From the IMG/VR virus record IMGVR_UViG_3300022890_000011, positions 102,602-166,601 of that record: DNA of 64,000 nt; one strand, 5' to 3'. A program made the translations under genes and the position numbers. Below, piece after piece: positions 1,034 to 45,592 of the stretch. The notes below the pieces were generated by a model. That model made no database searches and had not been told where the DNA came from. It worked only from the letters and a program-made list of their open reading frames with translations. This DNA comes from a virus. Within the stretch, counting starts at the first letter, position 1; every line of letters begins with the position of its first letter.

Positions 1034-1384
1034 ATGAAAATTAGAAAAGGATTTGTGAGTAACAGCTCATCAAGTAGTTATATTTGTGATATTTGTGGTG
1101 ATGCTTTTGAAATGTGGGATGAGTCTCCTACTTCATGTGAATATGGTCATTATTTTTGTTATGATTGTATTCCAGATAACTGTGAAGGTGAAGGAAGTGT
1201 TGAAGAAAAGGATTGTCCTTATTGTTCATTTGAGAAAATTTCAGAATATGATTTTAATAATTATATTTTAGCTAAATATAATTTAAATAAAGGAGATATT
1301 GAAAATGAAATTTATGAGAGATTTGAGAACTTTTCAGAATTTATAATTTATATTAACGAAAATAAGAATAGAAAATGCGATTAG
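1034..1384 (+). CDS. MKIRxGFVSNSSSSS-leader protein with Cys-rich zinc-finger-like body
   Basis: N-term MKIRKGFVSNSSSSSY; CDIC, CEYGHYFC, CPYC. Confidence 0.8.
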   Translation: MKIRKGFVSNSSSSSYICDICGDAFEMWDESPTSCEYGHYFCYDCIPDNCEGEGSVEEKDCPYCSFEKISEYDFNNYILAKYNLNKGDIENEIYERFENFSEFIIYINENKNRKCD

Positions 1385-1710
1385 AAAATTTAGAAACAAG
1401 AGTAATTGGTTATATTGGTGTAGATGCAGGTATTGTGTGGATTGGAGACCCATGTTATATAATGCATAAAGATAAACCTTATAAATCTATTGGTAAAGAT
1501 TGGGGTGATTTTTGTGATAAACTTGGTGATAGTTATGTTAAATCATTTAATTATGACATGGGGCACGAGGGTTTAGGTGTTTGTACATCTACTAAACACG
1601 GTGATGGTCATTATCCAGTTATCGGGTTTTTTGAACCAGGTGCACAAAGACCATCATGTGTAATGGTTGATTTTGATAACATTTTTAATAACGAAGAAGA
1701 TGAAGATTAG
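1375..1710 (+). CDS. Hypothetical protein, DUF4241-like
   Basis: GVDAG..WIGDPCY and T..GDG.YPV motifs. Confidence 0.55.
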   Translation: MRLENLETRVIGYIGVDAGIVWIGDPCYIMHKDKPYKSIGKDWGDFCDKLGDSYVKSFNYDMGHEGLGVCTSTKHGDGHYPVIGFFEPGAQRPSCVMVDFDNIFNNEEDED

Positions 1711-2152
1711 AAGTGGTTTTGTAAGTAATAGTAGTTCATCATCTTTCTTAATTTTAAAAGAAGGATTAAGTGATGAACAAATTAGTTCTGTGATAGAACA
1801 TAAGAAACATGCTGATAATTATTTTAATAGTAATGATAGATTAACTGATGAATATCATGAGAATGAAGAAGATGGTTATTCACCTTTTCATCAATTGTAT
1901 GGATTTTGGGATATAGATGGTTATGATGTGTGGAATATAGAAGATCATTTAAATTATATATTAACTGAAAATGGTATGGATAATTTTGATTTGATGAGTT
2001 TTTGTATTGATATATTTAATATACCAAAAGATAATATTTATACGGTTGAAAGTGATATGTATTATTATATTAATGATGTAGATAGTTTTGTAAAACAGAC
2101 AATTACAGAAAGTCGTAAAAATAAACTCGAAAGAGTAAAAAATAAAAAATAA
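1700..2152 (+). CDS. MKIRxGFVSNSSSSS-leader protein with RKNKLERV tail
   Basis: True start is probably ATG 1700 (MKIRSGFVSNSSSSSF), not 1667. Confidence 0.8.
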   Translation: MKIRSGFVSNSSSSSFLILKEGLSDEQISSVIEHKKHADNYFNSNDRLTDEYHENEEDGYSPFHQLYGFWDIDGYDVWNIEDHLNYILTENGMDNFDLMSFCIDIFNIPKDNIYTVESDMYYYINDVDSFVKQTITESRKNKLERVKNKK

Positions 2153-2155
2153 AGA

Positions 2156-2641
2156 ATGGGAACGAGAAGTTCAATTGCAATTAAAACAGAAGATGGTACA
2201 TATAAAGGAATATATTGTCATTGGGATGGTTATTTAGACCATAATGGTATTATACTATATGAATCTTATGACACTTATGAAAAAGTACTTGAATTAGTAA
2301 ATTTAGGTGATGCTTCATCTTTAGATCATAGTTCTAAATTAGTTGAAGGACATACATATGATACAAAAAAAGAAGGATGTTCCACATTCTATCATCGAGA
2401 TAGAGGTGAAAAATGGGAGGATGTTGCTCCAAAAGAGTTCGATACATATAAAGAATTGTTAGATTATTTAGGTCAAGGATATGATTATATTTTTGAAGAT
2501 GGTGAATGGTATGATAATGGAAAAGGTAAATTAGAGGATTTACTTATTAATACTGAACATGCTTCAAGAGTAAAGGAATTAAAGAAAAAGAGAATACAAA
2601 CAGATAGAAAACTTAAAATAGAGAGAATAAATGAAGATTAG
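2156..2641 (+). CDS. Conserved phage hypothetical protein (MGTRS..I...YCHWDGY) with RKLKIERI tail
   Basis: ORF with recognisable N-terminal motif. Confidence 0.7.
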   Translation: MGTRSSIAIKTEDGTYKGIYCHWDGYLDHNGIILYESYDTYEKVLELVNLGDASSLDHSSKLVEGHTYDTKKEGCSTFYHRDRGEKWEDVAPKEFDTYKELLDYLGQGYDYIFEDGEWYDNGKGKLEDLLINTEHASRVKELKKKRIQTDRKLKIERINED

Positions 2642-3191
2642 AAGTGGTTTTGTAAGCAATAGTAGTTCATCATCTTTCATATTAAGAAAAGATGATTATT
2701 TTCCTGATTCATATAGCTTAGCGGCTAGCATGATAAAAGTTAGAGAATGGAATAATGATGGTGAACTAGTTGATAAATTAATTAGTAAAGTGGAGGCTGG
2801 TGAAAGTTATCCTAATATTAGTTTTGCATCTTGTAATTATGATACGTTTATAGTTGATGAAGGAGATTATTTATTATGTGAAACTTGTAATAATCATGCA
2901 CATTGGAATATAACTGATTATGGTGATAATATTAGTTTTGCATCTTTACCAGAAGAAATAAGATTAAAATATAGTAGAGATGGTGATATGAATCTTACTG
3001 GAAAATATAGTGAAGAAGAAAAAGATTGTGATGAATTTTGGTTTGTAGAACATGATATAATTGGTAAATTAGCTTCTAAATATACTAATGGAAAATATAA
3101 TAATGATACATATTGTTCTGAATGTTATACTGATTATGTTGTAATTGATGGTGTTGCACAATGTCCAAGATGTAGAAAAGTAGATGAATAA
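2631..3191 (+). CDS. MKIRxGFVSNSSSSS-leader protein with C-terminal zinc ribbon
   Basis: Leader motif; CSEC...CPRC. Confidence 0.8.
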   Translation: MKIRSGFVSNSSSSSFILRKDDYFPDSYSLAASMIKVREWNNDGELVDKLISKVEAGESYPNISFASCNYDTFIVDEGDYLLCETCNNHAHWNITDYGDNISFASLPEEIRLKYSRDGDMNLTGKYSEEEKDCDEFWFVEHDIIGKLASKYTNGKYNNDTYCSECYTDYVVIDGVAQCPRCRKVDE

Positions 3192-3830
3192 GTATTTTAA
3201 AGATATATTAAATAATTCTCAGTTTACAATGATATCAGGAAAAACTAATAGTGGCAAAACTAGATTTTTAATGTGGTTAGCTGCTTTATGTTCAGAAAAT
3301 AACAAGGTCTTATACATTTCTACAGAAATGAGTGAAAGACATGTTATTAATAATTTTTCACCATTATTGAATGTTGATTTACATAAAAAATGGATTAGAA
3401 CTGCTAGAAAACTTAAAATGGATAGAATTAAAGGTAATATCGAATATAAAAATATACCAGGTATTGTTATTAAACATACTCAATATGTTGATGATATTAA
3501 AAAATTGGTTGGTGATTATGATGTTGTTGTTATTGATTCTATATTAATTTAATATTGGAAAAAGATAGAAGGTTATATTCATATAAAGAACAAAATGATT
3601 TTATTAATATATTTACGGGAAAAGTTATTATATCATCTCAATTATATAGAAATGGAGATATTTTAACATCTAGTTTTCCAATGAAATTGTTTACGAATAG
3701 TGATTCTGTATTTTCTATTGAAAAAGAAGATAATTTTTTATTAAGTAAGATTGAATGTCACAAAAATAGATATTTACCTATTGGTTTAGTACCTAAAAAA
3801 TTTGATTTATCAAAAATGAATTTTGTTTAA
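3184..3830 (+). pseudogene. DnaB/RecA-fold ATPase split into two ORFs (3184-3552, 3555-3830)
   Basis: Walker A GKTNSGKT, YISTEMS and Walker B VVVIDS in the first half; SSQL, SD.V and KNR in the second; frame break near 3550. Confidence 0.6.
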
Positions 3831-4029
3831 AAATAAAATATTAGAGATGAGAGAATTTTTATTAGAATTAAAGAATAAATATCCAAATGATCAAGATTTT
3901 GGTGAAAAAATGAGAGAATTGTTATTAGATGAAGAATTATTATATTTTTTATCTGAAATTGAAGAAGATTTTATAATGAATGTTTGGTATGATGATAAAG
4001 TAAATGAATTAAAAAAGAAATATTTATAA
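3823..4029 (+). CDS. Hypothetical protein (YPNDQDFG)
   Basis: ORF tightly packed in the operon. Confidence 0.6.
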   Translation: MFKNKILEMREFLLELKNKYPNDQDFGEKMRELLLDEELLYFLSEIEEDFIMNVWYDDKVNELKKKYL

Positions 4030-4256: not shown

Positions 4257-5006
4257 ATGAAAATTAGAAACGGATTTGTAAGTAATTCAAGTAGTAGTTC
4301 ATTTGTTATAATGTCTACAAATAAAATAGAGTCAAATGATGATATATATGAAAAGTTTTTGATACCTGAAGCATCACCTTTAAGTAGTTTGTCATATGAT
4401 ATATCTCGCACTTTTTTTAATCAAAGTGAAGAAATGTCATATGAAGATATAGTAGATGAATATTATTATGGTGATAAAGAACTTATTCTAGAAGATGTGT
4501 CTCTCTTACATGAAGAATGTAGTTGGTTGTTTAGTTTAGAAGAATTACAAAAAATAAAAGATGAAAAATTATTTGTAAGATATGGTTCTGTTTCTAGTGA
4601 TAGTGGAGAACCAATTGATCAGTTGATATATTATGGTGCAGATATTAATATAGATACAGAAGATTTTAAAATAAATAGAAAATTAATGGAACAATTTACA
4701 ATTATGTTTAATGGAAAAGAATTTAAAATTAAATCACGAGAACATGAATTAATATTCTTTTCTATGTGGAAAGCAATAAGCCAAATATTACCTGAATTTA
4801 TTGGAGAAGAATATTATGCTCAATGCAATAATTCATTTATAAATGTAAATAAAGCAATTAATAAACAAAAACATAATCATGAATTTTTTAACGCCTTCTT
4901 CATGAAAAAAAATATAATCAATGAAAATACTGTAATTTTTATTAAACCTGTAAAAGCGTGTTATGATTGGAAAAAGAAATATGACAAATATATATTTGTA
5001 ATATAA
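4257..5006 (+). CDS. MKIRxGFVSNSSSSS-leader protein, apparently fused in frame to a second gene starting at ATG 4686
   Basis: Leader motif; repeat copy at 5054-5087 preserves the original end TEDFKIKIEN*. Confidence 0.7.
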   Translation: MKIRNGFVSNSSSSSFVIMSTNKIESNDDIYEKFLIPEASPLSSLSYDISRTFFNQSEEMSYEDIVDEYYYGDKELILEDVSLLHEECSWLFSLEELQKIKDEKLFVRYGSVSSDSGEPIDQLIYYGADINIDTEDFKINRKLMEQFTIMFNGKEFKIKSREHELIFFSMWKAISQILPEFIGEEYYAQCNNSFINVNKAINKQKHNHEFFNAFFMKKNIINENTVIFIKPVKACYDWKKKYDKYIFVI

Positions 5007-5627: not shown

Positions 5628-7907
5628 ATGAAAATAAGCCAAAAAGACCAACAAGACATTCTTGATAAGAATAAAAGATTAGAATCAATTAAACCAATTC
5701 TTAAATCAGAATTTATTGGAATAGATGATGTTATAGATAATATAATTGAATCTATAAGACCATTTTATGTTTTTCCAAAATCTCTTAAAAGACCTTTAGT
5801 GGTTAACTTATGGGGATTAACTGGAACTGGTAAAACATCTATTGTTGATAGAATAGTTGATTTATTAGAATTAAATAATAGATATTCTAAATTTGATGTT
5901 GGTGAATATTCTTCATCTAATTCAGATTGGAAATTAAAACAAGATTTAGGAGAAGCTACTTCTAATATTGATACCAAAAATATGATATTTGCATTTGATG
6001 AGTTTCAACTAGGTAGAACTATTAATGAGATGGGAGCTGAAGTTGATAGAATTGCTTTAAGACCTATGTGGGAAGTTATTGATCATGGAATTATTTACGA
6101 ATTTAATTACTCATATTCACGTGTATTTGATATACTTAAGAAAATAAAACAATGTGCTGATTCTGGTGTAGAGGTTAAAAAAGGTTATGTTGTTAAAAAT
6201 GAACATGTTTATAATTCAGTTTTTAGACGTGAAGAATTAAGACCTTGTGATTTTAAGGTTTGTACATATCAAGAACAAATAGAAGATGAAGATGAAAATC
6301 ATAATCATCCCGATAGAGAACCACCAATAGTTGTTAGTAGAAGTAATAAAATAACAGAAGAAGCTAAAGAGATTAGAATTAATAAAATAGTCGATCCTGA
6401 TTCAGTTTCATCTTATTATTTTGATATTTCAGATGAAGAAATGAAACATTTTGTACAACCTAGAATGATTAAATATTATCATTATTGTAAATTTTATGAA
6501 GCTAACCCTGCATTTTTTGAAAATGAGTTTAATTTTAAAAAACATATTGATAAGTTTAATTTGCCATTTCCATTGTTAATTGAAATGATTAGTAAAAATT
6601 TCATTATGAATTCATCATTAATGAGAAAGAAAGATTTTTCACAATCATTAGTATTTTGTGTTGGTAATGTTGATGAAGCATATACAATGGCTTTTTCTTC
6701 TGATCCTGATGCGGATGCGGATTTATTTTGGGAACATTCTTTAAAGATTAATATTCCTAAAATGAAAAATGCTTTATCTCATAGATTTAGAATGGAACAA
6801 ATTGGTAGATTAGGTAATAATCATATTGTATATCCAGCTCTCAATAAAAATTCTTATGAAAAGATTATTGAACTTTATTTTAACAAAAGAGTTGAACATT
6901 TTGAAGAACAATTTGGAATTAAATTAGAAGTGGATGAAAGTTTAAAAGATATTATGTATAAAGAATCAGTTTTTCCGTCCCAAGGTGTGAGACCAATTTT
7001 ATCATCTTTTAATACATTAGTAGACTCTTATGTTTCAAGATTGATTTCGGATTTAATTTTCCAAAATCCTACATGTGATAAAGTTAACTGGAAATATAGC
7101 AGAAAAGATGAGAAATATATTATTTCATCAACAGGAGAGAAAGAAGAAGTTATTATTGAATATCCAGTTAAACTTAATATTGAAAATTTAAGAGAATCTG
7201 ATTATTCAGAGAATCAAGCATTTACCGCTGTTCATGAAGCTGGTCATGCAGTTATTTCTGTTGTTGCAGCCGATTTAGTTCCAAAAGAAGTTGTTTCTAA
7301 AACAGCATCTATTGCTGAAGGTTTTTGTAGAATTGAATATCCAGAACAAATGACTAGAGATTTATCTATTAAACAAATCAAAGTATTATTAGCTGGTATT
7401 GAATCTGAAAGATTTCTATTTGGTGATGAATTAATTAGTTCAGGTGCTTTTTCTGATTTATCAAGAGCAACTGATTTAGCTGTGTCTATGATTAAAGAAT
7501 TTGGTATGGGCGAAAGTCTTTGTCAAATAAGAGCGACAACAGATTCCACTATGGTTGGTATGAAAGTAATGAGTGAAGATTATGAAGAAGTTATCGCTAA
7601 GATGATTGATGATCTTCAAAAAGATGTTCAAAAATTATTAAAAGATAATGAAGAGTTTTTATTAGAATTGTCTCATTTTTTATCTAATAATTCTAAGATT
7701 GAGAAGGATGAACTAACTAAAATGGCTAAAAAATATCATACAAAATTCAGAGATAAAGATCATTATTATGATTTTAAAGATACTATTAAAACTCGTATGA
7801 ACAAGATTGATATGTCAGAATCACCAGATTCTATTGTTAAAGAACAGATTTATGAGTTTTCTCAAAATAAGAAGAAGAAAAATAATGGAAACGGAAAATC
7901 AAAATAA
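5628..7907 (+). CDS. Soluble AAA+ ATPase (Clp-D2-like) fused to peptidase M41 (FtsH-type) domain
   Basis: FIGID.VI, GLTGTGKT, FAFDEF, GRLG, QGVRP; C-terminal AVHEAGH and GA.SDL..AT; no TM segment. Confidence 0.8.
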   Translation: MKISQKDQQDILDKNKRLESIKPILKSEFIGIDDVIDNIIESIRPFYVFPKSLKRPLVVNLWGLTGTGKTSIVDRIVDLLELNNRYSKFDVGEYSSSNSDWKLKQDLGEATSNIDTKNMIFAFDEFQLGRTINEMGAEVDRIALRPMWEVIDHGIIYEFNYSYSRVFDILKKIKQCADSGVEVKKGYVVKNEHVYNSVFRREELRPCDFKVCTYQEQIEDEDENHNHPDREPPIVVSRSNKITEEAKEIRINKIVDPDSVSSYYFDISDEEMKHFVQPRMIKYYHYCKFYEANPAFFENEFNFKKHIDKFNLPFPLLIEMISKNFIMNSSLMRKKDFSQSLVFCVGNVDEAYTMAFSSDPDADADLFWEHSLKINIPKMKNALSHRFRMEQIGRLGNNHIVYPALNKNSYEKIIELYFNKRVEHFEEQFGIKLEVDESLKDIMYKESVFPSQGVRPILSSFNTLVDSYVSRLISDLIFQNPTCDKVNWKYSRKDEKYIISSTGEKEEVIIEYPVKLNIENLRESDYSENQAFTAVHEAGHAVISVVAADLVPKEVVSKTASIAEGFCRIEYPEQMTRDLSIKQIKVLLAGIESERFLFGDELISSGAFSDLSRATDLAVSMIKEFGMGESLCQIRATTDSTMVGMKVMSEDYEEVIAKMIDDLQKDVQKLLKDNEEFLLELSHFLSNNSKIEKDELTKMAKKYHTKFRDKDHYYDFKDTIKTRMNKIDMSESPDSIVKEQIYEFSQNKKKKNNGNGKSK

Positions 7908-10597: not shown

Positions 10598-12604
10598 ATG
10601 GATGATGTAGAAAATAAAAAATCAAATAAAAACAGTAATTCTGATACACCAACATTAGATTCTTATGGTGTTGACTTGACAAAAGCCGCAATGGAAGATA
10701 GGTTAGACCCCATAATTGGTCGTGAAGTTGAAATTGAAAGATTGGCTCAAATTTTGAGTAGACGCAAAAAGAACAACCCAGTATTAATCGGGGAGCCTGG
10801 AGTTGGTAAAAGTGCCATAGTAGAGGCTTTGGCTATTAGAATCATAAATAAAAAAGTGTCAAGAGTTCTTTTTGATAGAAAAGTCATGACTTTAGATTTA
10901 GCTTCAGTTATTGCTGGTACTAAATATAGAGGTCAATTTGAAGAAAGGATGAAGGCTATCTTAGATGAATTATCAAAAAATGAGGATGTAATATTATTTA
11001 TTGATGAAATACATACAATAGTTGGAGCAGGTGGTGCATCTGGTTCACTTGATGCTGCAAATATGTTAAAACCAGCTCTTGCTAGAGGTGATATTCAATG
11101 TATTGGTGCAACGACATTAGATGAATATAGACAACATATTGAAAAAGATGGAGCGTTGGAGAGAAGATTTCAAAAAATAATGGTAGAGCCAACTTCTTCT
11201 GAAGAAACAGTTGAAATACTTCATAAAATTAAAGAAAGATATGAAGATCATCATAATGTAGAATATACTGATGAAGCATTAGAAGCTTGTGTTAAATTAA
11301 CTAATAGGTATATTACAGATAGATGTTTACCTGATAAAGCTATTGATGCTCTTGATGAGGCTGGTTCTAGAGTACATATTTCTAATATTGTTGTTCCTCA
11401 ATCTATTTTGGATCTTGAATCTGAATTAGAAATAGCTAAAAAAGATAAATTAGAAGCAGTTAAAGCTCAGAAGTTTGAAGATGCTGCAGAGGCTCGTGAT
11501 TATGAAAAAGATATTTTAAGTGATATTAAATCTGAAAAAATAGAATGGGAAAAAGAACTTTCAAAAAATAAAGAAAAAGTTGACGAACATGATATTGCTG
11601 AAGTTGTTGCGATGATTACTGGTGTTCCAGTTAATAGAATTGCTCAATCAGAAGGTAATAAACTAGTAAAAATGGATGTAGACCTTAAAGGTAAAATTAT
11701 TGGTCAAGATGAAGCACTAAGTAAAATTGTTAAATCTATTAAGAGAAATAGATCTGGGTTGAAAGATCCAAATAAACCAATTGGTACATTTGTATTCTTA
11801 GGTCCTACAGGGGTTGGGAAAACGTGGTTAGCTAAAGTATTATCTGAATATTTATTTGATAGTAAAGATGCTTTAATTAGAATTGATATGAGTGAATATA
11901 TGGAGAAGTTTGCAGTTTCAAGATTAGTTGGTGCTCCTCCAGGATATGTTGGTTATGAAGAAGGCGGACAATTATCTGAGAAAGTTCGTAGAAAGCCATA
12001 TTCTGTTGTGTTATTAGATGAAATTGAAAAGGCACATCCAGATGTATTTAATATTTTACTTCAAATTTTAGATGAAGGTAGATTAACTGATAGTTCTGGT
12101 AGAAGAATTGATTTTAGAAATACATTGATTATAATGACTTCTAATATTGGTACTAGACAATTAGCTGAACATGAAGGTGGTGGTATCGGTTTTGATACAA
12201 AAGCAAAATTAGAAGGTAAAGAATCACATAATAATAGTGTTGTACAGAGTGCTTTGAAAAAAGCTTTTGCACCAGAATTTCTAAATAGATTAGATGATGT
12301 AGTTGTATTTAATTCATTGGATATAAATAGTATTAAAGATATTATTGAAATTGAATTAGAGGGTTTATATTCTAGAGTTGAAGAACTTGGTTATAAAGTT
12401 AAATTGTCACCGAAAGCAAAAGATTATATTTGTGAAAAAGGATTTGATCCTAAATATGGTGCTAGACCTTTAAAAAGAGCAATACAAAAATATTTAGAAG
12501 ATAAATTAGCAGAAACTCTAATATCTACAAATATTAAGCAAGGTTCTACTATTTCAGTTGGATATAGTAAGAAAAATGATGAAATAACAATTAATGTAAA
12601 GTAG
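10598..12604 (+). CDS. clpC: ClpC-type Clp ATPase lacking the N-terminal Clp repeat domain
   Basis: Two AAA modules (GEPGVGKS, GPTGVGKT), UVR M-domain, GAPPGYVG, GARPL. Confidence 0.95.
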   Translation: MDDVENKKSNKNSNSDTPTLDSYGVDLTKAAMEDRLDPIIGREVEIERLAQILSRRKKNNPVLIGEPGVGKSAIVEALAIRIINKKVSRVLFDRKVMTLDLASVIAGTKYRGQFEERMKAILDELSKNEDVILFIDEIHTIVGAGGASGSLDAANMLKPALARGDIQCIGATTLDEYRQHIEKDGALERRFQKIMVEPTSSEETVEILHKIKERYEDHHNVEYTDEALEACVKLTNRYITDRCLPDKAIDALDEAGSRVHISNIVVPQSILDLESELEIAKKDKLEAVKAQKFEDAAEARDYEKDILSDIKSEKIEWEKELSKNKEKVDEHDIAEVVAMITGVPVNRIAQSEGNKLVKMDVDLKGKIIGQDEALSKIVKSIKRNRSGLKDPNKPIGTFVFLGPTGVGKTWLAKVLSEYLFDSKDALIRIDMSEYMEKFAVSRLVGAPPGYVGYEEGGQLSEKVRRKPYSVVLLDEIEKAHPDVFNILLQILDEGRLTDSSGRRIDFRNTLIIMTSNIGTRQLAEHEGGGIGFDTKAKLEGKESHNNSVVQSALKKAFAPEFLNRLDDVVVFNSLDINSIKDIIEIELEGLYSRVEELGYKVKLSPKAKDYICEKGFDPKYGARPLKRAIQKYLEDKLAETLISTNIKQGSTISVGYSKKNDEITINVK

Positions 12605-15835: not shown

Positions 15836-17095
15836 ATGCAAAAAGAAAGAATTAAAGTAAAACCTACAATTTATAAAGATAAACCAATTCACGTACACGA
15901 AATAGAAATGTTTGATGGAAATATTGGAATTGTTAAAGACACCGAATTTATTAAAGTTTTTAAATCAGATGATTATAATTTTTATTTTAATAAGATTGAC
16001 GGGGAATTCATAAGATGGGGTACCGGAGATTACACAAAAGAACCACCAAAAAAAGTTTCTAAAAAACAAATTGAATTGTACCAATTATGGACAATTTTCT
16101 GGGGTGAAGATGTAGGGAATTTCAAAGATTTTGTTAGAGACCTGGAAACGGATGGTAGTGTTACAAATACAGTGCCGGAAATCTTAGATTTTGAGGTAAG
16201 TGATAAGTGTGCAGGTGTGAGTATGGCTGGTGGTAAGGCTTCGCCTTGTAAATTTTGTTATAAATCGAATAATAATAATGGATCTTATATGACAACTGAA
16301 GATTTTACTAAAGTTATGGATAAGATGCCAAAATCTTTATGTCAAATAGCTTTGGGAATTGGTAATGTAGATCAACCAAATTTATTTGATCTAATGGATG
16401 TGTGTATTCATCGTGGAATCGTGCCAAACTTGACTTTGAATGGAGATCGAATGACTGATGAGATTTGTGATAAATTATCAGAAAGATGTGGAGCAGTTGC
16501 TGTTAGCTATTATGATAAAGATTTAACATTTAATTCAATTTATGAATTGGCTACTGTTAGAAAAATGTCTCAAATTAATATTCATTACTTTTTATCTGAA
16601 GAGACATACGAACAAGGTTTACAGTTAATTGATGATGTTCAAAATGATCCAAGAACTAAAGATTTAAATGCTATTGTTTTTCTTTCAGCAAAAATTAGAG
16701 GAAATGCCGAAAAAAATAATTATCATATTCTTAGTCAGGATAAATATAATATAATTTCACAAAAAGCTTTACATATTGATGTGGCTGTGGGGATGGATAG
16801 TTGTAGTGCATTCAAGACCCTGATTAGTTTTAAAGATGAACCTAATTTTGATTCTTTACAAAATATGATAGAGAGCTGCGAATCAACTATTTATAGTACC
16901 TATATAAATAAAAAGGGAATTTTTTTTCCATGTAGTTTTGCCCAGGGCATCGGTGATTGGAGTGAAGGTATAAATGTTTTAGAGTGTAATAATTTTTTAA
17001 AAGATGTTTGGCATAACGAAAAAACAAGAAAATTTTCATGTGAAGTTGTAAATTGTAGAAATCAGTGCAAATCTTGTGCTATATTTGAAATTTAA
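15836..17095 (+). CDS. Radical SAM enzyme with C-terminal SPASM/twitch-like domain
   Basis: DFEVSDKC-x12-CKFCY, NLTLNG, AVAVS; C-terminal SCES..PCSF..CRNQCKSC. Confidence 0.85.
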   Translation: MQKERIKVKPTIYKDKPIHVHEIEMFDGNIGIVKDTEFIKVFKSDDYNFYFNKIDGEFIRWGTGDYTKEPPKKVSKKQIELYQLWTIFWGEDVGNFKDFVRDLETDGSVTNTVPEILDFEVSDKCAGVSMAGGKASPCKFCYKSNNNNGSYMTTEDFTKVMDKMPKSLCQIALGIGNVDQPNLFDLMDVCIHRGIVPNLTLNGDRMTDEICDKLSERCGAVAVSYYDKDLTFNSIYELATVRKMSQINIHYFLSEETYEQGLQLIDDVQNDPRTKDLNAIVFLSAKIRGNAEKNNYHILSQDKYNIISQKALHIDVAVGMDSCSAFKTLISFKDEPNFDSLQNMIESCESTIYSTYINKKGIFFPCSFAQGIGDWSEGINVLECNNFLKDVWHNEKTRKFSCEVVNCRNQCKSCAIFEI

Positions 17096-17100: not shown

Positions 17101-17928
17101 TTAAGGTTTCCATTCTTTAATATTATCGTCCAATTTTGTTAATATTTTTCTACATTTGTATCCTTTGTAAGTGTTTGTTTTACCAGTTGAACAACTATAA
17201 AGTGCAGTTGCATGTAATTTAATATCAGTATAATCTTTACAAAATTCACTAACTTTTATTTTATATTCCTTTCCATTTGGAAATGTAATAATATAGAATT
17301 TAGTGTTTTTGTAGTAAGGATTATTTTTACCTTTTAAGTGTTTTTCTATATAATTATTTTTTTCATCTTTTGAAGCCTTATTTATCCAACATTTATCTTT
17401 TAATTCCTGTTCTGATAATTTTTTTTGATAATTATTATCACCAGTAATATTATTAAGCCATAATTCCCTTTCTTCTTTTGACATTCTTTTTGAAAAATGT
17501 TTTTCTCCTGAAACAAGGTGACCATTTTTATACATACCATTATTCTCACCATATCTATATTTTATTAACCATTTTTTACGTTCTTCTTCAGATAGCCTTG
17601 ATAGCCAGTGATTTTCGCCAACTGAACCATAATTACACAAACCACCTTCTGTTAAATTGTATCCATTTTTATTAGGTGCATATGAATTATATTTTTTGAT
17701 ATAATAGATTTCTCGTTCTTCTAATATATCACTATCGCATTCTTCTACAACTTCCCATTTAAAATTTTCAACACCATATTTAATTAAAGCTTTATGAAAA
17801 ATAGAAAATTTTACACCACTTTTAGCTTCTTTAATATGTTCCTTTTTTCTGATTTTAAGAGTTCTGCCTGTTAATCCGATATAATGTTTACCGTTAATGT
17901 TATTAATTACTTTATAGATTATTCCCAT
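17101..17928 (-). CDS. GIY-YIG homing endonuclease
   Basis: GIIYKVIN..NGKHYIG, E.E.YYI, GYNLT.GG, G..N.Y repeats, NUMOD-like C-terminus. Confidence 0.9.
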   Translation of the reverse strand: MGIIYKVINNINGKHYIGLTGRTLKIRKKEHIKEAKSGVKFSIFHKALIKYGVENFKWEVVEECDSDILEEREIYYIKKYNSYAPNKNGYNLTEGGLCNYGSVGENHWLSRLSEEERKKWLIKYRYGENNGMYKNGHLVSGEKHFSKRMSKEERELWLNNITGDNNYQKKLSEQELKDKCWINKASKDEKNNYIEKHLKGKNNPYYKNTKFYIITFPNGKEYKIKVSEFCKDYTDIKLHATALYSCSTGKTNTYKGYKCRKILTKLDDNIKEWKP

Positions 17929-37554: not shown

Positions 37555-40500
37555 TTAAGCATTATATCTTGTTTTTTCTACCCAAGTTCCACCTGAATAA
37601 ACCTCTACGACTAAATCTCTACCAGGCTCTTGGTGATCTATGCCTTGTCTCCAACTACCTTCTGTATTAGTAGGTCCCCAATAAATAAAACCATCTTCAT
37701 CTATATATACATTATCTGAAAATATAGTGGTAGCGCTCAAAGCGGTTATGTCAATATTAGTGGTTGATAGTGTTTCTGTTCCATAATCCCAAGTTAAACC
37801 GCTTTCTGATGTTGCTGTATTTCCACTACCAAACAATATTTCTTTGTCGGTAGCTGTTACACTACCACCAGAACTTCCACTATTAGTTAAATCCCATGTT
37901 GTTCCACTTTCATTCACAAAATAAATGTGACTATCATCTTCGCTAACATAAAGTCCACCATATCCTGTTTGTTCTGTTGGTGTTGCTATATGTGGAAGGA
38001 ATAAAGTGTTATGCACTTTAATAAAATCGTTGTCAAATTCACCATAAATTAAAGGAGTTGTTGTGTTTGAATTTGCGATATATAATTTGTTTGAATAATA
38101 CTCACTATATCCAGCACTATGTCCAATAAACACGTTGCCTGTTCCTCCTGTGTTTATGTATCCTGCACTTCTACCTAAATATGTATTATTATAACCTTCT
38201 TTATTAAATTTACCAGCATAAGCACCAATGAAAGTATTATCTATACCAGTACTAACATATGCAACATGTGTACCTATAAGAACACAATTATTCCCAGCAT
38301 TCTGATAGCCTGCTTGGTAACCTATTGCAACTGTGTAATCAGCGTCTGTAGTATTAGAAGTTGTACCTATAGCTACTAATCCTACACTTTCGGTACCGAT
38401 ACTACCTGCACCTGCACCAATTAACACATTATTGTTACCACTTGTTAATCTACCACCAGTACTATTTCCAATAGCAGTATTATTACCTCCTGTTAATGCG
38501 TCATCTAAAGCATTTGAACCTATAGCAACATTAGCTGTACCTGTATTGTTTGTTAGTGCTAAATAACCTATACCGACACAATAACTTTGTGTATTTGTCT
38601 TTAATGCCCGATAACCTATACCAACATTATATGTTCCACTATTCACATCTCCTGCTTCATAACCAAAATGGACATTGCCTATACCAACACCTTCTATTTC
38701 CATTAGGTTATTTGTACCATCAGAAAATAAGAAATATCCATTATCAGCAATTGTTAAAATACCATTACTTGAACTATTTTGAAATTCTAAAATGTTTGTA
38801 GAACCTGCTGCACCAGAACCTTTAGCAAAAAATGTTGTTCCATCCCAAGTTAAATTACTTGAACCAGTTATTGTATTAGAACCATTTCCAAATGCTATAT
38901 GATCTGTTTCTAAGGATATTGTATTAGCACTTAAAAAATAATCACTTGTTTGTGCAGATGTATAATAATCACTCAAATCAGTTGAACCTGTATCAGTTAA
39001 ATTAAAAGTATTTCCACTTTCATCAACAAAATATGGTAGTGCATTTATTGCATTTACATAAAACCCACCATATCCTGTTTGTTCTGTTGGTGTAGAAATT
39101 AAAGGTAAGAATAAACTATTGTGTATTCTAATATGATTACTTGAAAAATCACCATGAATTAAAGGTGTAGTAGTATTTGTATTTGCAATATAAAGTTTAC
39201 TGCTTCCTAATTCATCACTACCAGCATCATAACCAATAAAGACATTTGATGAACCAGTTGTATTGTTACCGGTATGATATCCAATTGCGGTATTTTTTTC
39301 TCCAGTCACCACGTCCTCCAATGCACCTATACCTAAAGCAACATTATATTGAGCACTTACAACTTTGTAAAGTGATCTAGTACCAATCCCTATATTATAT
39401 GAACCATCTGTACAAGCGTTTCCAGATTCTCTTCCTGTAAAAAAATTAAAGAAACCTGATCTTAAATTGGCTCCTGCATTATCTCCAATACAAATATTTT
39501 CATCACCATCAATTAAATCATAACCTGATTGGTAACCAATTAAAATGTTTTTAAATCCTTCCGTTACTTTATAACCCGCAAGATTTCCAATTAAAACATT
39601 GTTATATCCAGTTGTTATCGCCGAACCAGTATTGTGTCCTAATATAACATTATTAGCACCTGTAAAACCAACGGCATCACCTGATTTATAACCAATGGCT
39701 AAATTACTTGCACCATAACAATTTTTAAGTGAATCTGTTCCAATTCCTATACCATTGGTAGCACCTGTAGTACTTTGACCCGCACCATGACCGATATAAA
39801 TAGTCTCACTAGCAAGATTATTATATCCAGCCAAATATCCTATCGATATATTATAATCACCTGATATATTCTCGTATCCAGAAGCATAACCAAATGCAAG
39901 ATTACCAAGACCATCTGAATTTGAGTAACCTGCTTCATAACCAAAAAAATTGTTGTAATTAGCAATATTTGAATATCCTGCTTGATAACCAATAATAACA
40001 TTATTTATACCATCTACATTTGAATATCCTGCACTATTACCAATAAACGTATTATTTTCACCTCCCTCAGTATATACTCCTGCATATGCACCTATAAATG
40101 TATTTGATGCACCATCTGTAAGAGCATTTCCAGCCGCAGCACCAAAAATAGCGTTATACAATCCAGTCATTGTGAGGTTTCCAGCATTTAATCCAATTGC
40201 TGCCGATGTTGCAACACCACTTTGTATATTTAATCTACCATTAATATATAAAGATTCATCATTGTATGATAAATTACTTGAGCCACTTATTTCATTTGAA
40301 CCAGAACCGAATGCAATTTGGTCTGTAGCCAAAGATATTGTTGTCGCTGATAAAAAGTTAGCACTTGTTTGTGCAGATGTATAATAACCACTTAAATCAG
40401 TTGTTCCCGTATCAGTTAAATCCCATGTACTACCACTTTCGTTTATGAAATAAATATGACTGTTAGCTGTATCAACATATAAACCACCATAACCAACTTG

Positions 40501-42351
40501 TTGTGTTGGTGCTGCAATATGTGGTAAGAATAAACTATTATGTATTCTTAAGTAATTTGATGTAAAATCACCATATATTAAAGGAGTTGATGTACTACTA
40601 TTATCAATATATAATTTACTATTACTTGTTTCAGTTCTTCCAACATTATAACCAATAAATACACAACTACTAGCGGCACCACTATCATAACCTGCTGTAC
40701 TTCCAAGAAAAGTATTATTATTTCCAGTATTTTTTTGTCCTGTATATTTACCTATCATGACATTATATGTTCCTGGATTTTCATAACCAGAAGCACTACC
40801 AAGAAAAGTATTATAAGAACCTGTGGAATTACCACCAGCTAAAATTCCAATAAATGTATTTTCTCTTTGAGTCGTCATTTGTGAACCCGCTGAATATCCC
40901 ATGATAGTATTCTGATCACCACTTGTTATTTTATAACCTGCTTGATAACCAAATAATGAATTACCTATACCACTAAATACAGCAAATGATGCTGCAAGAG
41001 AACCGACTATAGTATTTTGAGTTCCACCTGATGATTGATATCCAGCACGATAACCAATCAATGTATTATCAACTCCTGTCATTGTTGTATTTCCAGCACT
41101 TTGACCTATTATAGTAGATCTTGATGTAACACTTCTTAAATCAATTCTACCATTTATGAATAAAGACTCATCATCCCAAGTCAAATTACTTGAACCTGTT
41201 ATCTTATTTGAACCATTTCCAAATGCAATTTGATCAGTTTCTAAAGATATTGTAGTTGCTGATAAAAAATTATTATCTACTTCAGTTTGTGTATAATAAC
41301 TTGTATTAGCACTTAAAAAGTTGTTATCAAAATATGTGTCTAATGATGAACCATCAATTAATATCTCATCATTAACCTGTGTAATTACGCTATCTGTTAA
41401 TCTTCCATTGGTTGTTGCAACTGGTAAATATGTTTCTGTTAAATTTGCACCATCATTTAGAATTATTCCCCTTCTTGTATTAATGTCACCTGATTGTAGT
41501 TCAACTCTACGAAGTTGTGAATATGTACCACCCCAATTATCAGCAAACTTAAATGCATAATATCTATATCCAGTTGTATTAGTTACATAAACATATTTTG
41601 GGTCTACTTGATTTAAAGCAACGTGCTCTTCAAATAAAGAAACATCAGTTGATAATTCAACCCAAGTTCCGTCATTAGCATAAATTAAATCATCAAAATC
41701 AGCTTGTGTATTTGAACCCCACAAGGTAAAGTTTTTAACACCACGGTCAGTAGTATTACCAATATTGTGACCATTTTCATAATATACTTTTGTTATTATT
41801 TTTGTTGAACCTAAATCAATATGAAATCGTTGGTCAGCAATAACACCGTTGTTTGACGACCATTGATTATTACCAAGAGAACCAATTAATGATTTTGTTG
41901 GGTCAGTTGCAAAATGAGGATAATAATCACTAGATAAAAAAGTTGTTGCTTTAACCGTTGTCACATCTTGAGGTGATGGGTATTCGCTTGTATATATTAT
42001 AGATGGTATTGGTGTTTTAATGCTAAAATATAAATCATTATCAACATATTCAACAGCACCTTGTTCTGTTGTATTTAGTAAACTACCACTTTGAAATTTT
42101 AATGGGAAATTTGCTGTTGTGCCAGAAGATAAAGTCAATCCACCAGTCATAGTATCACCAGTGATATTAACATACCTATCATCTGATTCTACTTTAGTAT
42201 ATTTATCTGCTAAATCATAAGAATTTCCTAATTCATTGATCATATAGTAAGATGTACCACTAGCATATAAATTCACGTATCCGCTTTGAGGTGTAATAAC
42301 TGAACTAACAGATGTAGGTATCGCTGTTTGTGGATATGATTTTCTTAACAT
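37555..42351 (-). CDS. Long tail fibre/adhesin with discoidin (F5/8-C)-like domain and three blocks of N.xIGY.AG repeats
   Basis: GDTMTG.L; IDLG..K.I..V...GSN...YRYY; about 14-aa G-rich repeats; repeated linkers. Confidence 0.8.
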   Translation of the reverse strand: MLRKSYPQTAIPTSVSSVITPQSGYVNLYASGTSYYMINELGNSYDLADKYTKVESDDRYVNITGDTMTGGLTLSSGTTANFPLKFQSGSLLNTTEQGAVEYVDNDLYFSIKTPIPSIIYTSEYPSPQDVTTVKATTFLSSDYYPHFATDPTKSLIGSLGNNQWSSNNGVIADQRFHIDLGSTKIITKVYYENGHNIGNTTDRGVKNFTLWGSNTQADFDDLIYANDGTWVELSTDVSLFEEHVALNQVDPKYVYVTNTTGYRYYAFKFADNWGGTYSQLRRVELQSGDINTRRGIILNDGANLTETYLPVATTNGRLTDSVITQVNDEILIDGSSLDTYFDNNFLSANTSYYTQTEVDNNFLSATTISLETDQIAFGNGSNKITGSSNLTWDDESLFINGRIDLRSVTSRSTIIGQSAGNTTMTGVDNTLIGYRAGYQSSGGTQNTIVGSLAASFAVFSGIGNSLFGYQAGYKITSGDQNTIMGYSAGSQMTTQRENTFIGILAGGNSTGSYNTFLGSASGYENPGTYNVMIGKYTGQKNTGNNNTFLGSTAGYDSGAASSCVFIGYNVGRTETSNSKLYIDNSSTSTPLIYGDFTSNYLRIHNSLFLPHIAAPTQQVGYGGLYVDTANSHIYFINESGSTWDLTDTGTTDLSGYYTSAQTSANFLSATTISLATDQIAFGSGSNEISGSSNLSYNDESLYINGRLNIQSGVATSAAIGLNAGNLTMTGLYNAIFGAAAGNALTDGASNTFIGAYAGVYTEGGENNTFIGNSAGYSNVDGINNVIIGYQAGYSNIANYNNFFGYEAGYSNSDGLGNLAFGYASGYENISGDYNISIGYLAGYNNLASETIYIGHGAGQSTTGATNGIGIGTDSLKNCYGASNLAIGYKSGDAVGFTGANNVILGHNTGSAITTGYNNVLIGNLAGYKVTEGFKNILIGYQSGYDLIDGDENICIGDNAGANLRSGFFNFFTGRESGNACTDGSYNIGIGTRSLYKVVSAQYNVALGIGALEDVVTGEKNTAIGYHTGNNTTGSSNVFIGYDAGSDELGSSKLYIANTNTTTPLIHGDFSSNHIRIHNSLFLPLISTPTEQTGYGGFYVNAINALPYFVDESGNTFNLTDTGSTDLSDYYTSAQTSDYFLSANTISLETDHIAFGNGSNTITGSSNLTWDGTTFFAKGSGAAGSTNILEFQNSSSNGILTIADNGYFLFSDGTNNLMEIEGVGIGNVHFGYEAGDVNSGTYNVGIGYRALKTNTQSYCVGIGYLALTNNTGTANVAIGSNALDDALTGGNNTAIGNSTGGRLTSGNNNVLIGAGAGSIGTESVGLVAIGTTSNTTDADYTVAIGYQAGYQNAGNNCVLIGTHVAYVSTGIDNTFIGAYAGKFNKEGYNNTYLGRSAGYINTGGTGNVFIGHSAGYSEYYSNKLYIANSNTTTPLIYGEFDNDFIKVHNTLFLPHIATPTEQTGYGGLYVSEDDSHIYFVNESGTTWDLTNSGSSGGSVTATDKEILFGSGNTATSESGLTWDYGTETLSTTNIDITALSATTIFSDNVYIDEDGFIYWGPTNTEGSWRQGIDHQEPGRDLVVEVYSGGTWVEKTRYNA

Positions 42352-42440
42352 TTACAATTATTTTTCTTGTTGGTATATATATTATTTTTATATGGTAGGA
42401 ATTTAAAATAATCGCATTGTAAAAATAAATATATAATAAT

Positions 42441-42794: not shown

Positions 42795-42826
42795 AAATAT
42801 CCAAAAAAAATCCGTATCTTGGTAAG

Positions 42827-44038
42827 ATGAAAAAACTTAAACACTTAAAGACATACGAAGGTTTCACAGTGAAAAATTCATACATTCCTACTTACGAGGA
42901 AGCAGTAGAAATATGCGAAGTTAATAAAAATTTCTATGAGAACACACACGAAGTCAACGGATATAAAGTGTCTACGTTTAATTATAGAATCGCAGGTTAT
43001 GAAGATTTTATAAACCCACTACCAGATAAACCAAATGTTAATGCTAGAGAATTAAGAGGTTTAACCTTCATTTTTAATGAAGATGGTTCTTTATATAAAA
43101 AATATTTACATTTGCAAAAGTTTTGGAATATAAATCAAGTAGAAGAAACATTCTACCAAAATATTAAAGATTATAAAATCGTCGGCGTGGCTGATAAATT
43201 AGATGGTTCTTTGGTTACATTCGTTAAATTTCCAAATGGTGATGTTCTAAGTAAAACTCAAAACTCATTCGATAACGAACAAACAGAAGTAGTAAATAAA
43301 TTGTACAAAGATAATGAAAGTATTCAAAACTTTATCAAATGGTGTGAAAAGAAAAATTATGTAGCATTATTTGAATATGTTTCATTTATGAATAAAATTG
43401 TACTAGATTATGACGAACCTCAATTAATACTATTGAGAGTTAGAGATAATGATACTGGTGAATACATTGAATTTAAAAATCTAAAAGATTTGGGTGAAAT
43501 ACCAATCGCTGAATCAGAAGAATTTGATAATTTAGAAGATATAATAGAACTCGCTAAAAATATAGAAGATAAAGAAGGATGGGTTATAACATTACAAGAT
43601 GAAAATGGTCAATATACCATGGTTAAACAAAAGACTGATTGGTACTTTATTAGACATAGATTAAATGATAAAGTTGAAAGGGAGAATGATATTATTGAAT
43701 TAATATTGGATAATACTATTGATGATATTTTATCACAATTAGACCCTGAGAGGGATGCTAGTAAGATTAAATTTATTAATGATATTACAAAGGTGGTTTC
43801 TGATTGGGTTAATGGAAGAGTTATAGAAGTTCAAGAATTAGTAGATAAATTTGATGGTGATATAAGAGATTTTGCTATTAGATATAAAAAAGATAAAAAC
43901 TTTGGTATGGCTATGATGGTTGTTAGAGGTTATGATACTAATGTATTTAATATTGTAAAAGAATTTTTAAAGAAAAATACAAATAAATTAGAACAAGCTA
44001 GAAGTTTTATAAAAAGAAAAGATTTTAAAAGAAAATGA
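42827..44038 (+). CDS. RNA ligase, T4 Rnl1-like, with LKHLKTYE leader
   Basis: E.RGL.F, KFWN..Q, KLDGSL, FEY....IV..Y, EGWV, K.K..WY. Confidence 0.88.
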   Translation: MKKLKHLKTYEGFTVKNSYIPTYEEAVEICEVNKNFYENTHEVNGYKVSTFNYRIAGYEDFINPLPDKPNVNARELRGLTFIFNEDGSLYKKYLHLQKFWNINQVEETFYQNIKDYKIVGVADKLDGSLVTFVKFPNGDVLSKTQNSFDNEQTEVVNKLYKDNESIQNFIKWCEKKNYVALFEYVSFMNKIVLDYDEPQLILLRVRDNDTGEYIEFKNLKDLGEIPIAESEEFDNLEDIIELAKNIEDKEGWVITLQDENGQYTMVKQKTDWYFIRHRLNDKVERENDIIELILDNTIDDILSQLDPERDASKIKFINDITKVVSDWVNGRVIEVQELVDKFDGDIRDFAIRYKKDKNFGMAMMVVRGYDTNVFNIVKEFLKKNTNKLEQARSFIKRKDFKRK

Positions 44039-44933
44039 TAAGAAATTATGATAATTTTTTGTTTGAGAAATATGGTTCAAATGAGTTAGTTAGAAAACTT
44101 ACTTTTTATTTGGAAGATGTTATAAATAAAAATATTGGTAAATTGATTTTAAATAAAAAAATTGTATTAAATGGTAGTTTAAAAAATTTCACTGATATTA
44201 ATTTTCTAAATGATGAAATTGAGATTGTTTTGTCAAATGAGACACATGGTGGTGTATATCTAAAATTATTATTAATTGATAATAATAAAATAGAAAATCT
44301 TAAATTGGTATTTAAGATGGTTTTATCACCAGTTGAAAAAACATCTAAAAAATTGAATCGAGATAATAAAATTATAAATATTATTTCTCATGAATTTTTA
44401 CATGTTGTTGAATTATTTTTGACAAAATTAAACAATAATTTAGAATCTAGATCATGGGAATATGGAGATAGATTAAAAATATTAAAGAAAAAATATTTAA
44501 ATAGTTGTGAATTTCAAAAAGTAGAATATTTAATATATTTGTCTTTGCCTCATGAAATAAGAGCCAGAATTGAACAATTGAATAAAAATGTGGAACAAAA
44601 GAATATAATTGGTATAAAAAAAACTCAAGAATATATAAAAACAACTAAAATATATAAAGATGTTGATTTTTTATCTACCATTAATATAGATAAGATTTTA
44701 CTAAAATTAAAGAAGTTGATTATGATTTAATCATAAAAGATTTTAATCATTTGTTTTTGCAGAATAATGCAACGAATATAAAACAATATGAAAATAATTT
44801 TAAAAATTATTTTAATACTTTATTAAAAAGAAACAATAACACGATTAAAAAATTGCTTAAAGTATCATATAATTTTCAGGATGGTTTAATGTTAGAAGAA
44901 GATATAAATATAAATTATTCTGAATATAAATAA
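44035..44933 (+). CDS. HExxH putative metallopeptidase; frameshift near 44712 splits off 44751-44933
   Basis: ISHEFLHVVE, Y...PHEIRAR; N-term MIRNYDNFLFE. Confidence 0.55.
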
Positions 44934-44947
44934 AATAAAATAAAAAT

Positions 44948-45592
44948 ATGAAAATAAGACAAGGATTTGTAAGTAATAGTAGTTCGTCATCTTTTATAGT
45001 GACGTTTCCAAAAGAAATGAAAAACGTAAGAGATGTTAAAGAATCATTATTTCCTGATGGAAAAACATTTAGTATAGAAACAACATCCTCATGGAATGGG
45101 ACAGGAACTATAATTGATTCAGATGAAATAGCTGAACACGTATGGAAAGATATACAAAATTCAGGTGATAAGACTGTATTTGAATTGATTTTTTTGCTTG
45201 GTGAAGATTATTTAGATGGTTTTTATAATGATTGGGGTGAGCCAAAAATGTGGAGATATGTTCCATATTGGAGAGAAGAAGGTTTTGAAAAAGAAGGCAC
45301 CAAACTTGGGTTATTGGATGAATTTGAAGGTTATACTAATTTGAAAGACTTAGAAGAAGATATTAAAATTAATGATTCTATAATAGATCAGGATGATTGG
45401 GATAAATATCCACAAGGAGCTGATTCTGGTTTAGAATCAGTTAAAGAATATATTGAAAAAGCAAAAAAGATTATCGAAGGTGATGAACAATTATATTTCT
45501 TTACATGGTCTGATGATTCTTCTTATGATGCAGCTTTTGAACATGGTGATGTATTTAGAAATCTTCCATGTAAAATAGAATCACATCATTAA
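44948..45592 (+). CDS. MKIRxGFVSNSSSSS-leader protein
   Basis: MKIRQGFVSNSSSSSF; ends EHGDVFRNLP...SHH. Confidence 0.8.
   Translation: MKIRQGFVSNSSSSSFIVTFPKEMKNVRDVKESLFPDGKTFSIETTSSWNGTGTIIDSDEIAEHVWKDIQNSGDKTVFELIFLLGEDYLDGFYNDWGEPKMWRYVPYWREEGFEKEGTKLGLLDEFEGYTNLKDLEEDIKINDSIIDQDDWDKYPQGADSGLESVKEYIEKAKKIIEGDEQLYFFTWSDDSSYDAAFEHGDVFRNLPCKIESHH

Follow-up and report, generated by a model that had tools for sequence, protein, structure and literature searches.

Genome comparisons and structure predictions indicate that a 16-residue N-terminal tag on otherwise unrelated phage proteins and an atypical radical S-adenosylmethionine (SAM) enzyme encoded in the same genomes are very likely functional partners. 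Both occur in a 64,000-nucleotide stretch (hereafter, the window; GC content, 25.9%) that forms the last 64 kb, or 3' part, of a 166,601-bp viral contig (IMG/VR record IMGVR_UViG_3300022890_000011; CheckV completeness estimate, 58%). Five open reading frames (ORFs) in the window open with M-K-I-R-x-G-F-V-S-N-S-S-S-S-S-[F/Y], and the enzyme is encoded at 15836 to 17095. With moderate confidence, we favor an interpretation in which this enzyme recognizes its substrates by the tag and, most likely, modifies them there as well. An earlier inspection of the DNA without database searches (the sequence-only reading) had put the leader forward as a portable modification or recognition tag for the co-encoded radical SAM enzyme, and this proposal is now supported by two-way co-occurrence, synteny, co-variation between clades, and co-folding. 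No description of the tag or of the enzyme-tag pair was found in open-access papers and preprints. The five tagged genes, at 1034, 1700, 2631, 4257, and 44948, are all present on the plus strand as that reading had listed them, and the genes concerned are as follows.

1034-1384, plus strand: leader-tagged protein, 116 aa; the tag (codons 1 to 16) leads directly into a Cys/His zinc-finger body
1700-2152, plus strand: leader-tagged protein, 150 aa; acidic body
2631-3191, plus strand: leader-tagged protein, 186 aa; C-terminal CxxC...CxxC zinc-ribbon-like end
4257-5006, plus strand: leader-tagged protein, 249 aa; body cluster 4 (11 members)
15836-17095, plus strand: radical SAM enzyme, 419 aa; phrog_7293 (E = 2.5e-76)
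44948-45592, plus strand: leader-tagged protein, 214 aa; phrog_7397 family, which includes RB16p111

Co-occurrence and synteny of the tag and the enzyme

The enzyme family was found in 39 of 49 leader-bearing viral records, and in all 15 of those that were at least 90% complete. The ten leader-bearing records in which it was missing were all at most 40% complete. None of 14 control genomes encoded the enzyme, and its background frequency was 172 in 50,697 GenBank phage records. For the reverse comparison, 80 loci were anchored on the enzyme alone, with 10 kb taken on either side. Strict tagged ORFs were present in 61 of these loci and the tag core in 70, with up to 13 copies per locus. Among the other ten, four had the tag elsewhere in the record and two had variant tags directly after the enzyme (MK[TIV]RQSFVANSSSSSF and MKSRN[FY]FVSNSSSSSF), which brings the tag to approximately 76 of 80 enzyme-anchored records overall. 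The remaining loci consisted of three fragments (9 to 28% completeness) and one complete 356-kb record. The objection that leader-bearing genomes might commonly lack the radical SAM enzyme is thus contradicted in both directions.

Gene order points the same way. All 195 strict tagged ORFs near the enzyme in the enzyme-anchored loci lie on the enzyme's strand. Among 105 short loci collected by a scan for the tag, 36 contained the enzyme, on the same strand in every case, at a median gap of 318 nt and with gaps of no more than 50 nt in ten. In one 248-kb genome, the enzyme is followed by five tagged genes with spacers of 8 to 12 nt; in a 548-kb genome, it is followed by a small zinc-ribbon ORF and then by at least 11 tagged genes. 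The sequence-only reading had cautioned that adjacency does not show the link. This holds for the window, where 10 to 29 kb separate the enzyme from the tagged genes, but elsewhere adjacency is the rule. Across the 80 enzyme-anchored loci, no third gene family recurs near the enzyme, protease and transporter families included.

A phylogenetic tree of 124 unique enzyme sequences contained two deep clades (support, 100). In clade I, found on bacterial chromosomes of six phyla, a single tagged gene lies approximately 400 nt upstream of the enzyme gene, and its tag variant is GFVTNSSSTSF. Clade II, of the phage type, has many tagged genes, mostly downstream, and the variant GFVSNSSSSSF. A tagged gene is present in the short locus of 113 of the 124 enzymes. 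Because both clades keep the pair, each with its own variant, the pairing has outlasted both rearrangement and deep divergence, with the tag varying in step with the enzyme. The window enzyme belongs to a subclade, together with homologs from three other loci (L089, L138, and L139), in which the enzyme and tag genes have drifted apart.

The bacterial version is a conserved four-gene cassette composed of a small ORF (136 to 143 aa), a tagged protein (137 aa), the enzyme, and an ORF of approximately 305 aa with a PF21648-like end. It was detected in Veillonella parvula, Acetatifactor muris, Lachnobacterium bovis, and others, and the L. bovis cassette adjoins an Avs2-like STAND NTPase. Many of the "cellular" matches are contigs of metagenome-assembled genomes with phage-type arrays and may be mis-binned phages. 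Cultured carriers of the system include RB16, RB43, KP15, KP27, Citrobacter phage Miller, and Vibrio phage D479. The RB16 enzyme (RB16p156) and tagged proteins (RB16p106 and RB16p111) are all annotated as hypothetical, and Vibrio phage D479 has five tagged genes on the strand of its enzyme.

The tag and the proteins that carry it

In a six-frame scan of the window, the tag motif appeared at exactly five sites, all of them immediately behind an ATG. Four further copies, in tandem genes, lie 2.3 to 3.5 kb upstream of the window start (contig positions 99067, 99438, 99800, and 100296), so that the contig has nine copies, eight of them within approximately 8.5 kb. Across the nine copies, 15 of 16 tag positions are invariant, and DNA identity between copies ranges from 62.5 to 97.9%. 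At the upper end, a single nucleotide in 48 distinguishes copy 1700 from copy 2631, in line with the near identity seen by the sequence-only reading. In pairwise comparisons of the nine tags, 204 codon differences were synonymous and 48 were non-synonymous. The non-synonymous ones affect positions 5 and 16 only, and the Ser codons alternate between the AGY and TCN boxes. Because the codon differences are mainly synonymous and the Ser codons switch boxes, selection acts on the tag peptide itself, as had been argued from fewer copies.

Beyond the contig, a degenerate DNA pattern for the exact tag matched at least 119 stretches of viral contigs, often in tandem multicopy arrangements, and 78 stretches in genome assemblies. 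The loci analyzed yielded 211 unique complete tagged ORFs, whose products have a median length of 130 aa (range, 20 to 305 aa). Positions M1, K2, R4, F7, N10, S11, S12, and S15 are invariant, and G6, V8, S9, S13, and F16 are nearly so. Positions 17 and 18 are always hydrophobic, and conservation stops at residue 18 (211 to 541 tagged proteins). The bodies fall into 74 BLASTP clusters, 51 of which are singletons. A 32-position profile of the tag matched 26,978 cluster representatives (50% identity) at an E value of ≤0.001 among 1.84 billion; of the best 150 of these matches, nearly all start at residue 1. The tag has no Pfam or NCBIfam model; in PHROGs, it corresponds to phrog_7397, of "unknown function."

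The five bodies in the window proved mutually unrelated in BLASTP comparisons, in agreement with the sequence-only reading, and each has orthologs in other phages. Two of the upstream tagged genes encode paralogs of the zinc-finger body at 1034. In the family of the latter (alignment A3), C18, C35, H39, C61, and C64 are invariant; its match to phrog_7397 spans the leader only, and its RING-type Pfam matches were all below threshold. The orthologs of the 2631 protein form body cluster 5. The 44948 family has an invariant C-terminal end of its own (...SD...EHG..F...H-COOH). A tblastn search of GenBank phages with the 44948 protein gave no match, the low-complexity filter probably masking the tag, and a fold search with the model of this family revealed no neighbor in the PDB (best E value, 0.27).

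In that AlphaFold2 model (mean predicted local distance difference test [pLDDT] score, 71.6), residues 13 to 20 form a core strand paired with C-terminal strands, and residues 1 to 9 have pLDDT values below 50. In the zinc-finger family, the tag runs straight into the first zinc knuckle. Given the low pLDDT of residues 1 to 9 in one family and the abutting knuckle in the other, the N-terminal decapeptide looks free and portable, and the end of the tag appears to merge with whatever fold comes next.

Several further features of these proteins were observed. Nineteen small ORFs of the contig, including tagged ORF 1700 and an untagged ORF at 2156, end with R-K-x-K-[LIM]-x-[RK]-[IVL] a few residues from the stop codon. 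The protein encoded at 1700, which ends with ...RKNKLERVKNKK, has both the N-terminal Ser tag and the C-terminal RKxKLxRV motif. The untagged 161-aa ORF at 2156-2641 (MGTRS...YCHWDGY...) is interleaved with the tagged genes, and its relatives (cluster 37) hold the same position in five other enzyme-anchored loci. A few predicted proteins (P0008 to P0016) join two tagged proteins in one reading frame, which puts the second tag in the interior; genuine fusion, loss of a stop, or recoding of a stop codon might each account for them.

The enzyme and its predicted complex with the tag

The sequence-only reading had described the product of 15836-17095 as an atypical radical SAM enzyme with a SPASM/twitch-like tail, which was borne out by the phrog_7293 match, an atypical CX12CX2C motif, and a CX12GX4C motif in the tail. 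The protein consists of an N-terminal beta-rich domain, a partial TIM barrel that contains CX12CX2C, and a tail of the twitch/SPASM type. In an alignment of 32 orthologs, the radical SAM cluster cysteines (C125, C138, and C141) are invariant or nearly so. The canonical CX3CX2C is present in many orthologs; in others, the loop contains insertions of 5 to 17 residues. Exactly four further cysteines, all in the tail, are invariant in this alignment (C323, C348, C366, and C414), and C348-x12-G361-x4-C366 of the window enzyme fits the SPASM/twitch pattern CX9-15GX4C. Judged from sequence, these four cysteines correspond to one putative auxiliary cluster of the twitch/SPASM type. A full SPASM domain, with two clusters, has seven or eight cysteines; the window enzyme has an extra C-x4-C-x3-C-x2-C run at its end, so that this copy may bind a second cluster.

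Profile searches detected the window enzyme poorly. It scored 10.7 bits against Pfam SPASM (E = 0.69; cutoff, 21.5 bits) and gave no match to PF04055 (Radical_SAM) at an E value of ≤1. The L. bovis ortholog passed both cutoffs, with 55.6 bits for PF04055 (cutoff, 29.5) and 27 bits for SPASM (cutoff, 21.5). Matches of the window enzyme to the NCBIfam models for MftC, NirJ2, and PapB were weak (best E value, approximately 1e-3, far below the cutoffs), and a sequence search against PDB chains returned chance matches only. PADLOC had no match for the window enzyme and only generic viperin-like radical SAM matches for the bacterial enzyme. Hidden Markov models of PqqD and of the recognition element of ribosomally synthesized and posttranslationally modified peptides (RiPPs) did not match the enzyme in a search in which the N-terminal domain was included as part of the whole protein.

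The AlphaFold2 model of the enzyme (pLDDT, 90.1; predicted template modeling score, 0.89), in which the N-terminal domain has five strands and two helices, gave 105 PDB matches at an E value of ≤0.001, and the top matches listed were all radical SAM enzymes. The closest folds, SuiB, SkfB, and CteB, had Foldseek E values of 2e-10 to 5e-9. Structural neighbors and the parts of the model that they cover are as follows.

SuiB: Z = 22.3, root mean square deviation 5.2 over 330 residues; model residues 16 to 418, N-terminal domain included
SkfB: Z = 22.0; model residues 37 to 409
anSME: Z = 19.8; model residues 113 to 419, barrel and tail only
CteB: Z = 19.7; barrel and tail only
ChlB: Z = 18.6; barrel and tail only
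PqqE: Z = 18.4; barrel and tail only
EpeE: Z = 18.0; barrel and tail only
PFL activase: Z = 14; model residues 56 to 320, part of the barrel only

Co-folding placed the tag on the enzyme. The enzyme (alignment A2) was folded together with two 4Fe-4S clusters, SAM, and the zinc-finger family of ORF 1034 (alignment A3). The median interaction prediction score from aligned errors (ipSAE) was 0.67 (runs, 0.40, 0.67, and 0.74), and the highest-scoring of three controls reached 0.10; the ipSAE mark that we used is reached by 58 of 80 solved complexes and by 2 of 110 mismatched pairs. The runs had at least 46% of contacts in common, with a partner pLDDT of at least 59. The co-folding of leader and enzyme that the sequence-only reading had suggested as a check therefore passed its controls. 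The confident interface involves partner residues 1 to 10 only. Tag residues 1 to 6 pair with enzyme strand 55-61 and residues 103 to 107, and the enzyme side includes the family-invariant barrel residues Q170, A172, N198, T200, G219 to A222, Q246, N248, H250, and E346. The pose itself is a prediction.

Two observations concern the enzyme gene and its surroundings. The 3' end of the gene borders on an oppositely oriented ORF (17101-17928, minus strand); the N terminus of this ORF appears GIY-YIG-like by eye, with no Pfam match at an E value of ≤1e-4, and Vibrio phage D479 has an annotated homing endonuclease in the same position relative to its enzyme. In one RB43 record (AY967407, 92715-93864), a break close to the 3' end of the enzyme gene puts the region of the last auxiliary-cluster cysteine in another frame; in a second RB43 record (HE981739), the match is uninterrupted over residues 43 to 419, which indicates a strain difference or a sequencing error.

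Other genes of the window and contig include a soluble FtsH-like protein at 5628-7907 (AAA+ plus Peptidase_M41, with an HEAGH motif and no obvious membrane anchor) and a two-ring ClpB/ClpA-like AAA+ protein at 10598-12604, neither of which tracks with the tag system. An RNA ligase (PF09511) at 42827-44038 begins with MKKLKHLKTYEGF. Similar N termini, resembling T4 capsid-targeting sequences (M..KTY(I/E)(E/G)F), occur in contig ORFs at 34846 and 85502 (three by the strict pattern) and form a class distinct from the Ser tag. Two TnpB/OrfB_IS605-type genes with a Cas12f-like TNB domain lie at 23477-24700 and 62828-63994. A 1,598-aa ORF at 37555-42351 (minus strand) had no Pfam or PHROG match; because the motif KLYI(A/D)N(S/T)(N/S)T(T/S)TPLI(H/Y)G(D/E)F occurs in it three times in one minus-strand frame (near 38070, 39180, and 40599), it is probably a fiber or tail protein.

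Proposed mechanism, alternative explanations, and known systems

For the interpretation that we favor, we infer catalysis on the tag, its target residue, and its effect as follows. The enzyme would have the architecture of a RiPP maturase, with a leader-binding N-terminal domain, a radical SAM barrel, and an auxiliary Fe-S tail. Tag residues 2 to 6 (K-I-R-x-G) would be added as a beta-strand to edge strand 55-61 of the enzyme, the terminal Met-Lys would sit in a pocket at residues 103 to 107, and residues 7 to 10 (F-V-S-N) would be threaded into the barrel, whose lining consists of residues invariant in the family. A 5'-deoxyadenosyl radical would then take a hydrogen from the tag and the auxiliary cluster would accept an electron, with a covalent change within the tag (a cross-link, an oxidation, or similar) as the outcome. 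In this manner, one enzyme could serve many clients of unrelated fold, nine in this phage, which are probably early proteins that act on the host.

The type of chemistry is narrowed by the tag itself. The sequence-only reading had drawn an analogy to the conversion of Ser to formylglycine. The sequences do not support it: the tag consensus does not contain the anSME motif (C/S)-x-(P/A)-x-R, and some lineages have Ala or Thr in place of Ser9. A sactionine or thioether within the tag is disfavored, as the tag contains no Cys, and a Lys-Trp link within it is disfavored in the absence of Trp. A Cys-dependent epimerase of the EpeE/YydG type is set aside less firmly: outside the cluster ligands, the enzyme has no invariant Cys, which makes this type less likely. 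Candidate sites would be the invariant F7, N10, S11, S12, and S15 and the aromatic residue at position 16, where an aromatic-to-C-beta cross-link or an oxidation, for example, might be introduced.

Several points weigh against tag modification by this enzyme. The co-fold pass may in part be memory of solved maturase-leader complexes (SuiB-SuiA and CteB-CteA), and with custom alignments and ligands in the co-fold, the ipSAE calibration holds only roughly. Part of the tag's constraint is left unexplained, because Ser11 to Ser15 are as conserved as residues 1 to 10 yet lie outside the confident interface. The distance of 10 to 29 kb between the enzyme and the tagged genes in this window is matched by a similar separation in RB16. 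The tag profile matches 26,978 clusters, and enzyme linkage was scored in the records and loci described above. Finally, the complete 356-kb record mentioned above (G052) has the enzyme and no recognizable tag; this may be a derived system with other partners. Its enzyme homolog has a long N-terminal extension (481 aa) and is followed by two small paralogous ORFs and several ORFs of 670 to 695 aa.

The genomic evidence for partnership would be equally well accounted for if the tag were a docking handle only, either a RiPP-like leader on a protein modified in its body or the mark of adaptors that bring host proteins or nucleic acids to the enzyme in an F-box-like manner. One enzyme with many variable partners fits adaptor logic, and RiPP maturases, including those with the closest folds (SuiB and CteB), normally modify the core and not the leader. 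However, nothing is conserved past residue 18, so the bodies have no common target site; they are folded domains of 60 to 290 aa rather than peptides; and tag residues 7 to 10, which fill the barrel in the co-fold, would block another substrate. We consider docking alone unlikely. It is improbable that the tag is a strand or loop of one very divergent shared fold, with the tagged proteins as remote homologs and the Ser-rich loop as their own functional site. The confident core beta-strand at residues 13 to 20 of the 44948-family model and the hydrophobic positions 17 and 18 are what such a fold would show, and in that one family the end of the leader is predicted to lie in an integral strand. 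The idea of a common fold, which the sequence-only reading had raised against its own proposal, is otherwise mostly false: there are at least 74 body clusters, the tag abuts a zinc knuckle in the zinc-finger family (a different structural context), residues 1 to 9 have pLDDT values below 50 in the monomer model, and the two-way linkage to the enzyme would be left unexplained.

Unrelated phage proteins can have a sorting peptide in common, as the internal proteins of T4 do with their common N-terminal sequence. The tag could likewise be a capsid-targeting or injection signal, a degron for the phage's FtsH-like and ClpB-like AAA+ proteins, or an export signal that co-occurs with the enzyme through common descent, and in the window the gene for the FtsH-like AAA+/M41 protease comes immediately after the cluster of tagged genes. 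Such a purpose unrelated to the enzyme is quite improbable. Proteases are not conserved neighbors (RB16 has an unrelated vWA protein in that place), no third family recurs near the enzyme, and the linkage survives deep divergence and rearrangement, with the enzyme upstream, downstream, or distant. The pair also occurs on bacterial chromosomes of six phyla in a four-gene cassette without virion genes. The tag contains no Glu and no (L/I)xE-type cleavage site, and the same contig has the separate T4-like N termini (MK..KTY(I/E)(E/G)F). The protease was likewise set aside as a third partner, being unrelated to the vWA neighbor in RB16 and without a recurrent counterpart in the 80 loci. Highly improbable is an activase that places a stable glycyl radical on Gly6: I-R-x-G-F resembles the motif R-V-x-G-[FY], and the PFL-activating enzyme is a structural neighbor of the barrel (Z = 14), but Arg is at G-2 in the tag and not at G-3, some lineages with the enzyme still adjacent have Ser, Phe, Tyr, or Asp in place of Gly6, and SPASM/twitch maturases are much closer (Z = 18 to 22) than activases.

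If the enzyme does modify the tag, the pair would constitute a large unrecognized viral system of posttranslational modification, with a 16-residue tag placeable on any protein. More tentatively, this tagging may be virus-wide, with one radical SAM enzyme modifying the portable N-terminal tag on tens of thousands of unrelated folded proteins. It would then represent a new class of enzymatic posttranslational modification of whole proteins; the modification would probably switch on or stabilize phage early effectors, with a single-client version in bacterial conflict loci. The single-client bacterial cassette beside defense genes suggests a role in phage-host conflict. Tag modification would also offer a first functional handle on thousands of "hypothetical" early phage proteins, including ORFans of the T4-like phages RB16, RB43, KP15, and KP27, possibly new radical chemistry on a Ser/Asn/Phe-rich sequence, and a compact enzyme-tag pair for protein engineering. 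The system is directly testable in Escherichia coli with existing phages.

Among known systems, the predicted three-part architecture and fold of the enzyme match those of SuiB/StrB (which forms the Lys-Trp cross-link of streptide), SkfB, and CteB, all radical SAM SPASM/twitch RiPP maturases with an N-terminal leader-recognition domain. As in those systems, the enzyme gene adjoins genes whose products have a conserved N-terminal sequence in common, and binding of the tag is predicted to occur by strand addition. In contrast, sequence similarity to these maturases is almost nil. The partners are folded proteins of 60 to 300 aa, in at least 74 unrelated body clusters, unlike RiPP precursors, and their conserved element comprises only 16 N-terminal residues, without Cys or Trp. 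Unlike RiPP maturase loci, there is no linked protease or exporter, and the system is mainly phage encoded. The likeness to anSME/AtsB lies in a radical SAM enzyme with auxiliary clusters, a short motif in a full-size protein, and the structural similarity of barrel and tail; anSME/AtsB have no leader-binding N-terminal domain and have two auxiliary clusters, whereas only four auxiliary cysteines are invariant in the enzyme described here. In the prochlorosin system, the maturase ProcM serves many precursors with a conserved leader and hypervariable cores. The present system resembles it in having a single enzyme and many genes with an invariant N terminus and a hypervariable remainder, some scattered in the genome. 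ProcM differs in being a lanthionine synthetase whose products are peptides modified in the core.

The nearest description in print is that of Kaur, Burroughs, Iyer, and Aravind (2020; PMC7159879), who predicted that radical SAM/SPASM enzymes in conflict-type loci modify a protein or peptide that is encoded alongside them and contains a short conserved motif. The motifs of their modules lie at the C terminus (FxSxx and others) and go with vWA-MoxR/VMAP ternary systems; neither the N-terminal MKIRxGFVSNSSSSSF tag nor its distribution among phages is described in that work. The system is a variation on the theme of a radical SAM maturase with a leader, and what would be new is that it acts on whole proteins, with one enzyme for many clients.

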